NCBI GenBank assembly: GCA_038870975.1
Contig: JAVZJD010000001.1
Location: forward strand, 608,001 to 672,000
Direction of reading: 5' to 3'
Origin: Candidatus Bathyarchaeia archaeon
GTDB lineage: Archaea > Thermoproteota > CALKCG01 > B24
Length of the DNA: 64,000 nt
Shown here: positions 266 through 48,580 of the stretch, piece after piece
How the letters are laid out: every line of letters starts with the position of its first letter
Position numbering within the stretch: position 1 is the first letter of the stretch
The notes under the pieces: model-generated
The model's input: the letters and a program-made list of their open reading frames with translations, nothing else
Database searches by the model: none
What the model was told of the DNA's origin: nothing
Made by a program: the position numbers and the translations under genes

Positions 266-1577
266 TTGGTCAGACTTTACGCCGATCTACATGTACATAG
301 TAGGTATTCAGCTGCAACAAGTAGAGATATGACGATTGAGGAAATCGATTTCTACGCTACTATGAAAGGACTTAACATAGTTGGCACTGGAGACGCTTTA
401 CATGGGTCTTGGCTTAAAGAACTTAAAAGTAAACTCACCGAAGTGGATGATTCTGGAATTTATAAAAGTAAGAGCGGAGGTTCAACACTTTTCATAGTTC
501 AAACAGAAGTTGCTACTATTCATGAGTATGAGGGGAAAACTAGGAGGATACACCACGTCATAACTATGTCAAACCTAGACAAGGCAGAAGAACTTAGAGA
601 AAAACTTAGAAGATATGGCGAATTGGATACAGATGGACGACCGATACTCTCAATTAGACCAGCTGAACTTGTGGAAATCCTCTTAGAGACAGATAGAAAC
701 ATTGTTATTTTCCCGGCTCATGCTTGGACGCCATGGTGGGGTATATTCGGCTCCATAAGTGGAGTCAATAAAATGGAGGAATGCTATGAAGATATGGCTA
801 AACATATAAATGCCCTTGAAACGGGTCTTAGCTCTGACCCATCTATGAACTGGAGGATTTCAGCTTTAGATAGATACACTCTTCTAAGCTTCTCAGATTC
901 TCACAGTCCCTATCCATATAGATTGGGCAGGGAGGCTACTGTCTTCAATTTAAAGGAGAAGACATACAGAGAAATTGCCGAAGCGATTAAAAATAAAGAC
1001 CCTACGAAAATAGTGATGACAGTCGAAGTTAACCCGGCCTACGGGAAAGGCTTTAAACCCCCCGATGTACCATTGGTCGGGCCATAGAAAGTGTGGCATA
1101 GGACCACTATCGCCTGAAGAGGCCTCTAAACTTAAATATAAATGCCCTATCTGCGGTAGAACGCTTACGAAGGGTGTTGAAAGCAGAATTGAAGAGTTGG
1201 CCGACCGGCCTAGGGGATTTAAGCCTTATAACGCCATACCGTATGTTTCAACATTGCCGCTCCATGAGCTCATAGCATTGTCTCATGGTTTAGACCCATC
1301 TTATGAGGGAGCGTTATCCACTAAGAAGGTTTGGGAAACCTATCGAAACTTAACATCGAAACTTGGAAGTGAATATTTCATCCTTCTGGAGGCTTCACGT
1401 GAAGATATTTTGAAAATCACAGATAACATGAAGCTGGTTGAACTTATAACTGCTCAGAGAACAGGCTCCTTAAGGATAAAACCTGGTTTTGATGGGGTTT
1501 ACGGTAGACTCGTATTTGAAGCAGGCGAAGATGTGAAGATGATTAAAGCTTCAAAGAAGCTGGAGGACTTTTTATGA
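266..1577 (+). CDS. endoQ: Endonuclease Q (PHP-domain DNA repair endonuclease), split by a 19-nt BHB intron; join(266..1047,1067..1577), 430 aa
   Basis: ORF 266-1087 has the PHP motifs DLHVHS, GTGD, HH, PAHAWTP, ETGLSSD, SDSHS and LGRE. ORF 1065-1577 has YHWSGHRKC, CPICG and PGFDGVYG. Removing 1048-1066 gives the continuous EVNPAYGKYHWSGHRKC. Confidence 0.88.
1048..1066 (+). other. Putative BHB-type mRNA intron (19 nt, AGGCTTTAAACCCCCCGAT) in endoQ
   Basis: 4-bp helix CGGG(1042-45)/CCCG(1061-64); 3-nt bulges AAA(1046-48) and ATG(1065-67); inner GG/CC stem; outer TA/TA plus a 7-bp helix CCCGGCC(1033-39)/GGTCGGG(1075-81). Canonical cuts restore the frame. Confidence 0.85.
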
Positions 1578-21994: not shown

Positions 21995-22103
21995 TGGCGG
22001 GCCCGGCGGGAGTTGAACCCGCGACCACCGGGTTACTTCAGTAATTTGGGGCATTCTTCTTACTTTAAAAGCCCGGCACTCTACCATTCTGAGCTACGGG
22101 CCC
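21995..22103 (-). tRNA. tRNA-Lys(UUU) with a 32-nt intron at 37/38 (22034-22065); CCA encoded
   Basis: Cloverleaf GGGCCCG...CCGGG-CTTTTA^A-CCCGG...TTCAACT...CGGGCCC-G-CCA; BHB with CTTT/GAAG helix and AGTAA/TTACT inner stem. Confidence 0.95.
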
Positions 22104-33879: not shown

Positions 33880-34193
33880 GATTTTATGATAATGTTTTTA
33901 GTTTTTCACAGCTTTTATACACTAGCGTATTTTTATTTTATGTTCTCTGCGAAGAGGGTTTAGAAAAGAATTTAAATGTAGATCTCGTGGAAAACCTTCC
34001 GTGAGCTGTGTTTCTGTAAACGCACAGTATAGGAACGTAGACATACGGTGATTCCTGCACTAATAGTAACATTTAGAAGCTGTAGAAGAGAAAGAGAGTT
34101 GGTACGTAAAGCTAGAACTCTGTCCAACTCTCATAAAATGTAAAGGTTAATAAGATTGAAAGCAGGATAGTTTCCTGCTTAGGGGGGATGGAA

Positions 34194-36417
34194 ATGCCTA
34201 GGTATAAGACGACGGCTGAAATCCTTAGGATAATTAAGGATAAGGAGCTTATTCGAAAGGCTTAAGGCTAGAACCTTAAGCCCGAAAAATATAGGTATTA
34301 TAGCTCACGTAGATCACGGTAAAACCACCATGTCTGATAGTCTTCTCGCTGCCTGCGGACTGCTTTCACCATCAGTAGCTGGTCAGGCCTTAGCATTAGA
34401 CTACATGGAGGAGGAACAGCAGAGACAAATGACTATTAAAGCCGCTAACGTGAGCCTCTACTATGAATATGAAAATAAACCGTACGTCATAAATTTAATA
34501 GATACCCCTGGACACATAGACTTTACAGGGAAAGTTACAAGGTCTCTACGGGCAATAGATGGGGCTGTTGTTGTCGTAGATGCTGTTGAAGGTGTGATGA
34601 CACAAACAGAAACTGTAACGAGACAGGCTTTAGAAGAGCGTGTTAAACCAGTACTATACATCAATAAGATCGATAGGTTGATCAACGAACTCAAGCTCTC
34701 ACCGCAGAAAATACAAGAAACAATTGTTAAGATAGTCAAGGATTTTAACAGTTTAATCGAAATGTATGCCGAACCAGAGTATAGAAACACTTGGAAAGTT
34801 AGCTTCACAAACAACAGCGTAGCATTAGGCTCTGCAAAGTACAAGTGGGGGTTTACACTTAAAACTGCCCAGAGGAAAGGCGTAAAATTCTCCGATGTTG
34901 TAGCGGCTTATCAAGAGGGCAACATAGATCATTTGGTGAAAGCAGTTCCACTCCATGAAGCAATATTAGAAATGGTTATCGAGCATCTCCCCCCACCCCA
35001 TGTTGCTCAAAAGTATAGAATACCTAAGATTTGGAGAGGCGATCTATCTTCTGATGTCGGTAAGGCTATGCTAGAATGTGATGACAATGGCCCCGTAGTC
35101 ATGTGCGTCTCCAATATAACTGTCGACCCGCAAGCAGGTATAGTTGCTACTGGTAGATTATTTTCAGGGACCATAAATTCAGGTGATAACATTTATCTGA
35201 TAGGCGCTAAATCCTACAGTAGGGTTCAACAGGTCTGTATATACATGGGACCCAATAGAGAAATCGTCGGCAGTCTATCGGCTGGAAACATACCAGCTCT
35301 ACTAGGACTTGATAAGGCTAGGGCAGGTGAAACAATCTCATCTGTGCAGGATATTGTGCCATTTGAAGCCGTCAAATATGTGACCGAGCCTGTTGTAACT
35401 ATAGCGATAGAGCCTAAATATAGTAGAGATTTACCTAAACTAGTTGATATATTGAATAGACTTACAATAGAAGATCCAAACTACGTAATCAAGATCGACC
35501 AAGAAAGTGGAGAATACCTACTCTCAGGAATTGGACAAGTACATCTGGAAATAGCTTTAACTCTAATAGGTAAAACCGGTTTAGAAATCGTAACATCTCC
35601 ACCAACAGTTATATATAGAGAGAGCATCAGGAGCGCGGCGGGACCATTTATGGCTAAATCTCCAAACAAACATAATAGAGCATTCATAAGCGTTGAACCA
35701 CTAGACCCTGAGATAGTAGAGCTTATAACCTCAGGTCAACTTAATGATTCCTTAGATCGAAGGACAATAGCTAACATTCTTAGAGAGCATGGATGGCCTG
35801 CTGAAGAAGCTAGAAACGTTTGGAGCATAGACCAACATGGATGTATTTTAGTGGATAGGACTAAAGGTATCCAGTACCTTAACGAAGTTAAGGATTATAT
35901 AGTTTCAGGGTTCCTCTCAGCTATGGACGATGGGCCGCTTACGAGAGAGTATGTTAGAGGTGTAAAGGTTAACCTTGAAAACGCTGAATTACACTCCGAC
36001 CCTGCACACAGAGGCCCAGCTCAAATAATACCAATGGTTCGTAGGGCGATCTATGCATGCCTTCTATCGGCAGATCCAATCCTACTTGAACCTATAATGA
36101 AGCTTGTGAGTAGGGCTCCGACTGAAATGGTTGGCGCTCTTACAAAAATCATTACATCTAGAAGGGGACGCATTTTAACAATAGATCAAAAAGAATACGT
36201 TATTCAAGTTGAAGGAGAAATACCTGCTGCTGAAACATTCGACTTAGCGAATGTTATAAGATCGGCAACATCTGGTAGGGCTTTTTGGAGCCTACCATTT
36301 TCAAGATGGGCTCCAGTGCCATCATCTATGCTGTCTCAACTCGTAAGTGAAATACGAAAGCGTAAGGGATTACCTCCAGAACCCCCGAAGGCTGAAAACT
36401 TCATGGATAAAGACTAA
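34194..36417 (+). CDS. fusA: Translation elongation factor EF-2, split by a 31-nt BHB intron; join(34194..34257,34289..36417), 730 aa (alternative start 34188)
   Basis: Exon 1 reads MPRYKTTAEILRIIKDKELIR after a GGGGGG SD. Exon 2 continues NIGIIAHVDHGKTT, DTPGH, NKID and the HRG diphthamide loop. The unspliced frame stops at TAA 34263. Confidence 0.93.
34258..34288 (+). other. Putative BHB-type mRNA intron (31 nt, AGGCTTAAGGCTAGAACCTTAAGCCCGAAAA) in EF-2
   Basis: Helix TTCG(34252-55)/CGAA(34283-86); bulges AAA(34256-58) and AAA(34287-89); perfect 9-bp inner stem GGCTTAAGG/CCTTAAGCC; outer TA/TA. Canonical cuts give ATT CGA AAT ATA GGT = IRNIG. Confidence 0.92.
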
Positions 36418-48491: not shown

Positions 48492-48580
48492 TGGGCCCGC
48501 CGGGACTCGAACCCGGGACTTCCCGCTTTCTACGCTCTCCTCCGCAGGCGGGTGTCCTATCCGTGCTAGACGACGGGCCC
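48492..48580 (-). tRNA. tRNA-Arg(GCG) with a 14-nt intron at 37/38 (48528-48541); CCA not encoded
   Basis: GGGCCCG...CCCGC-CTGCGG^A-GCGGG...TTCGAGT...CGGGCCC-A; BHB helix CTGC/GTAG. Confidence 0.93.

Follow-up and report, generated by a model that had tools for sequence, protein, structure and literature searches.

How does an archaeon obtain its only translation elongation factor 2 from a gene whose reading frame is broken by 31 nucleotides (nt) just ahead of the P-loop? The question arises from a 64,000-nt stretch of DNA (hereafter the window; positions 608,001 to 672,000 of contig JAVZJD010000001.1, assembly GCA_038870975.1) of a hot-spring Candidatus Bathyarchaeia archaeon. The host genome comprises 1.85 Mb and is 92.9% complete, its lineage forms a small class of 17 species in GTDB, and its near relatives originate from hot springs and Guaymas. 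The archaeal elongation factor EF-2 (aEF-2) is encoded in this genome by a single-copy gene, and the next-best matches are other GTPases (E = 5e-8 or weaker). On the comparative evidence given below, the segment 34258-34288 is very likely a bulge-helix-bulge (BHB) intron in the pre-mRNA of this sole aEF-2 gene, spliced by the endonuclease EndA and the ligase RtcB.

The gene is split between two reading frames. The frame-1 open reading frame (ORF) at 34188-34265 reads MEMPRYKTTAEILRIIKDKELIRKA and ends at the TAA at 34263-34265. Its conserved start is ATG 34194 (MPRYKTT...), and the upstream in-frame ATG 34188 is not kept in frame in relatives. The long EF-2 ORF opens only at ATG 34330, downstream of the P-loop; positions 34288-34329 encode the P-loop segment NIGIIAHVDHGKTT in the +1 frame, and no ATG, GTG or TTG precedes it. 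This reading of the frames bears out the first-pass annotation of the sequence, which had the EF-2 ORF called after its P-loop and the N-terminus lying upstream in another frame that stops at TAA 34263. Exon 2 matches the aEF-2 equivalog TIGR00490 with E = 3e-263 over profile positions 21-720 of 720, and the missing positions 1-20 are supplied by exon 1. Removal of 34258-34288 gives ...KELIR-NIGIIAHVDHGKTT and a product of 730 amino acids (aa) counted from ATG 34194. This predicted spliced product aligns without a gap over residues 1-730 with a natural intron-free EF-2 (P0133, described below; 92% identity), as expected from the earlier claim that cutting after the second base of each bulge neither adds nor removes a residue.

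The archaeal splicing endonuclease EndA cuts after the second nucleotide of each bulge. In the window, the helix between the two bulges consists of 4 bp (U34252-G34255 with C34283-A34286), and the two 3-nt bulges lie on opposite strands, each 3' of its helix strand, with a spacing that is constant in all 39 distinct introns that we resolved at this site (15 from the own class and 24 from a second class). The minimum-free-energy fold reaches -17.7 kcal/mol (z = -2.7 against shuffles) and slides the 3' bulge to 5 nt. The UUCG/CGAA helix, the AAA bulges and the 9-bp inner hairpin thus stand as first described, and the outer part of the motif needs correction. In the canonical register, the exon-side helix amounts to just 2 bp, which makes the motif a relaxed HBh' form instead of a strict hBHBh' form; helices flanking both sides were found in none of the 39 introns, whose outer helices have 0-2 bp. 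The relaxed form is also common among crenarchaeal substrates. The features of the locus are collected in Table 1.

Table 1. Features of the interrupted aEF-2 gene (window positions; cuts are predicted).
Feature	Position	Strand	Evidence or remark
Central helix, 5' strand UUCG	34252-34255	+	In exon 1: Ile third position and Arg codon; pairs with 34283-34286
5' bulge AAA; predicted cut 34257/34258	34256-34258	+	AAA in 38 of 39 variants
31-nt predicted intron	34258-34288	+	Frame restored on removal; same segment absent from SRR28530378 and SRR28530379 contigs
Intron hairpin: 9-bp stem (34259-67 / 34274-82), loop CUAGAA	34259-34282	+	Perfect pairing
TAA stop in exon-1 frame, intronic	34263-34265	+	ORF reading
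Central helix, 3' strand CGAA, intronic	34283-34286	+	Pairs with UUCG 34252-34255
3' bulge AAA; predicted cut 34288/34289	34287-34289	+	A34289 is the second base of the Asn codon
Exon 1: MPRYKTTAEILRIIKDKELIR and first base of Asn codon	34194-34257	+	N-terminus residue-for-residue as in intron-free EF-2 (MPRYKTT...IRN)
Exon 2: remainder of aEF-2, NIGIIAHVDHGKTT ... MDKD; stop 36415-36417	34289-36417	+	TIGR00490; single continuous frame
Probable promoter and short leader: AT-rich TATA-like segment, then G-rich Shine-Dalgarno-like run before the start codon	34131-34187	+	Near-invariant in five congeneric sequences

An insert occupies the same codon in 13 of 13 loci of the own order and in one locus from another class. 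A covariance model built from the alignment of these intron loci (14 sequences) matches 15 of the 17 genomes of the own class, and both genomes that it misses lack the EF-2 5' end in their assembly. It also matches 26 of 151 evenly sampled genomes of the second class, to which Bathyarchaeota isolate S4B2_HD70 belongs. The sampled genomes of other families of the phylum, and intron-free relatives such as Hecatellales, Nitrososphaeria, Caldarchaeales and Wolframiiraptor, carry an uninterrupted IRN(I/A)G.

The inserts are conserved as an RNA structure. Central helix, 3-nt bulge and hairpin all reappear in the RNAalifold consensus of the 14 sequences, and 7 of 12 pairs have changed on both sides, one of them within the central helix. 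Six of the eight aligned stem pairs of the intron hairpin show compensatory changes, and the central helix is 100% paired throughout the alignment. Paired cells amount to 98.2%, against 84.6% in column shuffles, and pairing falls to 16-61% when the 3' partners are slid by 1-3 columns. In the central helix, UUCG/CGAA covaries with UCCG/CGGA, which couples a synonymous Ile codon position to an intron base; four variants of this helix occur among the 39 introns. In the 3' bulge, the two leading bases belong to the intron and differ freely among relatives (AG, AU, AA, AC, UA, CA), and the third is always A.

Public annotation gives a 695-aa protein, as would be expected of a broken gene, that is, a pseudogene, an assembly error, or a P-loop-less 695-aa protein accompanied by a small peptide. 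We assign this explanation next to no probability. The genome holds no other EF-2: a second intact copy, which the first-pass annotation had named as part of a refuting condition, was looked for, and EF-2 proved to be single-copy in the 92.9%-complete genome. An assembly artefact is contradicted by the presence of the insert in dozens of independent assemblies. Moreover, the P-loop codons that separate the insert from the annotated ATG show perfect conservation but include no start codon. The exons are maintained as coding sequence, and the intron drifts in a compensatory manner.

The 39 introns allow the predicted cut to be examined across relatives. They are 25-54 nt long and fall into all three length classes modulo 3 (9/17/13). 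Cutting after the second bulge base on both sides restores the frame and the motif (I/V)RN.G in all 39, and this canonical cut is the sole solution with a 4-bp helix that gives both frame and motif for nearly all loci. In introns with AGA or AUA as the 3' bulge, either the genomic reading or cutting one nucleotide sooner would yield Asp or His, whereas the canonical rule yields Asn, as in the intron-free relatives examined. The Arg codon before the junction is CGA in 39 of 39 intron-bearing genes, as required by the central helix, while intron-free relatives use AGA, AGG, CGT, CGG, CGC or CGA. Assignment of the BHB by lowest fold energy was wrong at about a quarter of the loci and was replaced by a requirement for the conserved junction residues; for that residue this is partly circular, though for the frame and the structure it is not.

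The same data bear on translational recoding, in which the RNA stays uncut and ribosomes pass the insert through a +1 frameshift, stop-codon read-through or a hop of the gene-60 type. The window alone would permit it: the exon-2 frame is open from 34234, and a +1 shift before TAA 34263 would give an EF-2 with about 10 extra residues. Among the relatives, however, lengths in all three classes would demand +1, -1 or read-through in different species, and several inserts carry stops in the exon-2 frame (e.g., LKA*ALGPK). With all modulo-3 classes represented and stops in both frames, no single recoding rule is valid in all relatives. A hop from CGA to an intronic CGA or CGG arrives in the wrong frame and runs into a stop within three codons. 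Covariation keeps the RNA helix and not a peptide, and the natural intron-free form described below has no extra residues. We therefore regard recoding as highly improbable.

A stop codon in the exon-1 frame lies at intron nt 6-8 in 35 of the 39 introns (TAG in 21, TAA in 10, TGA in 4) and within 17 nt in the remaining four, so that all 39 carry one. An intein would need a translatable in-frame insert and was rejected on account of these stops and the length of 25-54 nt. Unspliced mRNA would encode a peptide of 23-25 aa (23 aa from start 34194). The position of the stop is retained while its identity and the adjacent bases change, which may reflect selection for immediate termination on unspliced RNA, with shared descent and constraints of the helix as alternatives. 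The importance of the stop would be greatest in the nine introns with a length divisible by three, where residues would otherwise be added beside the P-loop.

Natural sequences with and without the 31 nt exist side by side. The 90%-identity protein cluster of the genus contains one 730-aa member, P0133 (MPRYKTTTEILKIIKDKELIRNIGIIAH...), which comes from the Logan assemblies SRR28530379 and SRR28530378 (contigs of 15.8 and 15.5 kb). The DNA of these contigs reads ...TTCGAA/ATATAGG... (slash, junction), identical to the predicted junction, and exactly 31 nt are absent; the synteny is that of the window, with HMG-CoA reductase upstream and a SIS-domain gene downstream. Residues 36-730 of P0133 are identical to P0004, a 695-aa call from SRR28530381 and SRR28530383 (contigs of 73 and 45.6 kb) and from two further contigs of 20-50 kb. 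The 31-nt intron is present in both P0004 contigs examined (SRR28530381 and SRR28530383). The forms with and without the intron differ by one mismatch over 15.8 kb, and a comparison of four contigs shows three substitutions, each private to one run and none common to both intron-free contigs. The intron-bearing and intron-free contigs belong to the same strain and to one SRA series. The comparison of fusA genes proposed in the first-pass annotation thus found the insert at the same codon across two classes and its exact 31-nt absence in the SRR28530378 and SRR28530379 contigs.

A maximum-likelihood tree of the 2,112 nt of EF-2 coding sequence that start at the P-loop Ala codon and end at the stop (11 rows, a single row set) nests the intron-free sequence inside the intron-bearing genus with support 97/99. 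Its rows were six congeneric intron-bearing sequences, the intron-free contig, two sequences of the sister genus and two of the order. The runs that lack the EF-2 intron retain other mRNA introns: SRR28530379 keeps that of SAM synthetase, and in SRR28530378 as well as SRR28530379 the pcm gene is split.

The intron-free contigs represent either a precise intron-loss allele or spliced RNA, and the type of library decides between the two. Since the contigs are long and two-stranded and neighbouring introns are retained, the DNA reading is favoured, and we consider a very recent precise loss that segregates within one strain to be the likelier case; otherwise, the libraries are rich in RNA and dominated by spliced EF-2 reads. 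As to the route of a loss, no reverse transcriptase (PF00078), a possible agent of precise loss, was found in the 92.9%-complete host genome. The CGAAA direct repeats at the intron borders were rejected as a deletion route because they would remove 29 nt and not 31, and the observed 31-nt deletion fits only a 3-nt A-run microhomology. The run accessions are not mentioned in the searchable literature. Either way, the contigs show that the predicted exon junction occurs naturally and that the predicted 730-aa product is the functional protein. The tryptic peptide NIGIIAHVDHGK cannot discriminate spliced EF-2.

The host encodes the enzymes that splicing would need. Two genes carry the endonuclease catalytic domain PF01974. 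The 186-aa alpha subunit matches the catalytic EndA of Sulfolobus tokodaii, Aeropyrum pernix and Pyrobaculum aerophilum with E = 6e-45 to 1e-36 and retains GIDHAP, where entry 3AJV has its His-to-Ala change. Its K40 and K42 align without gaps with K44 and R46 of the A. pernix specificity loop, a Crenarchaea-specific element that confers cleavage of non-canonical and bulge-helix-loop (BHL) introns (PMC3241643). The 185-aa beta subunit lacks the catalytic His and resembles structural subunits. The host EndA is of the two-subunit alpha/beta type and, by homology, would have a broad substrate range that includes relaxed motifs. RtcB is encoded as well (PF01139, 494 bits). It lies in a 986-aa open frame (contig C1 62226-65000, minus strand) in which about 1.4 kb separates profile positions 1-50 from 49-426, so the proposed exon-joining ligase itself seems to contain an intein. 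ARAGORN reports introns in 13 of the 44 host tRNAs, some at odd positions. In the window, it calls an intron-bearing tRNA-Cys (48492-48580, minus strand) and an intron-bearing 'tRNA-Stop(tta)' (21995-22103, minus strand), the latter probably a mis-parsed intron.

The transcript would fold so that the last exon-1 bases UUCG pair with the intronic CGAA, and the heterotetrameric alpha2-beta2 endonuclease would cut after the second base of each bulge. RtcB would then ligate the exons and probably circularise the 31-mer too. The joined codons CGA-AAU-AUA would read ...ELIR-N-IGIIAHVDHGKTT and yield the 730-aa EF-2, while ribosomes loading on unspliced RNA would halt at the in-frame intronic stop. 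For the EF-2 junction, we infer the cleavage, the ligation and the enzymes responsible. The dependence on EndA and RtcB that was first proposed is supported by the same-site inserts, the covariation, the restored frames, the encoded enzymes and the contigs without the 31 nt.

The insert might instead be removed from the RNA by another endonuclease and ligase or by self-cleavage. The weak outer helix does not make a textbook EndA substrate, and the role of EndA is predicted only. The conserved features, however, match an EndA substrate, namely a 4-bp helix, 3-nt bulges and symmetric cuts after the second bulge base, and the host EndA is of a type shown to cut relaxed motifs (PMC3241643). Hetero-oligomeric EndAs have also been linked to the splicing of crenarchaeal cbf5 pre-mRNA (Yoshinari 2006, title as listed in PMC12397907). 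Rfam (cut-off E <= 1) and tRNA scans of the region gave no match, and the 31-nt insert is too short for a group I or II ribozyme, a class of self-splicing intron that we rejected on both grounds. A repeat or mobile element was rejected as well, with no further copy of the intron sequence found in the host genome. We thus consider removal by a different agent improbable.

Several observations weigh against splicing by EndA and RtcB. Because of the short outer helix, no variant encloses the 3' cut site in the way a strict BHB does, and cleavage would depend on the ability of the alpha/beta EndA to accept relaxed substrates, which is deduced from homology. The host genome contains 95 compact BHB-like hairpins with an inner helix of at least 9 bp. 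Since such hairpins are common, the weight rests on the position of the frame break, the covariation and the restoration of the frame rather than on the motif alone. An exact, slightly degenerate pattern for the spliced junction gave 0 matches in JGI metagenome contigs, and the intron-free contigs, if they are DNA, mean a dispensable intron rather than a spliced one.

We consider that the EF-2 insert is, from its sequence features, very probably a spliced mRNA intron; the BHB kind is known, and the host gene is new and essential. No description of an EF-2 intron was found in the searchable literature, in which the splicing of archaeal coding sequences rests on one confirmed case, cbf5, with others predicted (PMC2738675, PMC7714728). 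A 2020 paper names cbf5 as the sole known mRNA BHB intron besides its own Haloferax 5'-untranslated region (UTR) case (PMC7714728), the 2009 cbf5 paper gives further cases as predictions only (PMC2738675), and a 2025 structural paper cites the cbf5 work alone (PMC12397907). The crenarchaeal cbf5 intron (Watanabe 2002; Yoshinari 2006; Yokobori 2009, PMC2738675) resembles the EF-2 insert in being short, forming a relaxed BHB within coding sequence and occurring in hosts with a hetero-oligomeric EndA. Both also show gain and loss among relatives, and in both, gene callers read a frameshift or a truncation; precise secondary loss has been discussed for cbf5 (PMC2738675). The cbf5 intron differs in its position at the catalytic Asp codon, whereas the EF-2 insert precedes the P-loop in Bathyarchaeia-type lineages, and cbf5 splicing has been shown experimentally, whereas EF-2 splicing is predicted.

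Three other systems share parts of this arrangement. The EndA of Haloferax volcanii is homodimeric. The 5'-UTR BHB intron of HVO_1309 in that species is likewise part of an mRNA and cut by EndA, as demonstrated in vivo and in vitro, but it lies in an untranslated leader, so that the protein sequence is independent of it (PMC7714728). Non-canonical tRNA introns with relaxed BHB or BHL motifs are cut by alpha2-beta2 EndA with the Lys loop (PMC3241643), the enzyme class predicted for EF-2, in the same cut geometry; in EF-2, the RNA concerned is a messenger, and codons form the exon half of the helix. In HAC1/XBP1 mRNA splicing, a short intron is also removed without the spliceosome and the frame change decides the protein, and the XBP1 exons are ligated by RtcB (PMC8718801). 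There, the nuclease is IRE1, not the tRNA-splicing endonuclease, and the process is stress-regulated.

As foreseen in the first-pass annotation, standard annotation truncates such genes. The close database homologues are without exception called from a start behind the P-loop, with 692-695 aa. Among the best 120 homologues, about half are called truncated; their start is placed either behind the P-loop (692-695 aa) or within or shortly behind the insert (about 700-723 aa), and many carry the label elongation factor EF-2 with no comment. EF-2 is a common phylogenetic marker, and many public entries from these lineages lack the P-loop. Two other members of EF-2 clusters, P0175 and P0176 (Logan contigs of about 7.6-7.9 kb), have 1302-1304 aa among relatives of 692-712 aa and may be a fusion or an intein-bearing form.

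Further candidate mini-introns occur in the host genome. In the window, the EndoQ gene holds a 19-nt BHB micro-insert (1048-1066, plus strand) with central helix CGGG/CCCG and bulges AAA and AUG, and after the canonical cut ...NPAYGK and YHWSGHR... lie in a single reading frame. In cbf5 (contig C2, about 281640-281656, minus strand), a 17-nt insert lies at the catalytic Asp codon (GHGGTL/DP). Its central helix is CUCU/GGAG and its 3' bulge AUA, the exon-side helix measures 8 bp, and removal of the insert restores GHGGTLDPPATGVLP; the published crenarchaeal cbf5 intron likewise interrupts the catalytic residue's codon (PMC2738675). The SAM synthetase gene (contig C1 18966-19005, minus strand) has a 33-nt BHB insert whose removal joins ...VEIVER to KGLGHPDYICD. 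Its close homologues are called truncated, and in contigs of SRR28530379 and SRR28530380 the insert is 32 nt long and differs from that of the window's genome by a compensatory stem change. An AmmeMemoRadiSam-type radical-SAM gene (contig C1 783502-783538, plus strand) holds a 30-nt BHB insert (NPIE/KKPLYHF) and pcm (contig C2 34530-34565, minus strand) a 29-nt one (QTISAP/HMV), both with 9-10-bp hairpins and in-frame stops; in most of its best 120 database matches, pcm is called as a truncated protein of 156-166 aa.

A genome-wide census by structure and ORF restoration gave 1454, 51 and 73 candidates at three stringencies under the true cut rule and 1382-1484, 48-67 and 61-85 under shifted decoy rules, with no separation between them. 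Since the decoys equal the true rule, introns cannot be counted by structure and ORF restoration without homology, and census candidates were kept only if recognisable conserved motifs lay at the junction.

It is conceivable, though doubtful on present evidence, that the EF-2 intron acts as a control point at which EndA/RtcB capacity would gate EF-2 output, much as IRE1 and a ligase gate HAC1/XBP1, with the stop as a fail-safe. The intron would then be one of a lineage-wide set of 17-55-nt mini-introns in core genes (in this genome EF-2, SAM synthetase, cbf5, pcm, EndoQ and the radical-SAM gene), served by the tRNA-splicing enzymes as a general mRNA-splicing system and with copies still being lost from natural populations. 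Depending on the type of library, the pair of contigs with and without the intron would either prove splicing or document an intron-loss polymorphism within one strain. If the EF-2 insert is a BHB intron spliced by EndA and RtcB, an essential, highly expressed translation factor would depend on the tRNA-splicing machinery in at least two classes of uncultured archaea. Given this dependence and the several further mini-introns in the same genome, mRNA splicing by EndA and RtcB may be routine in these lineages.

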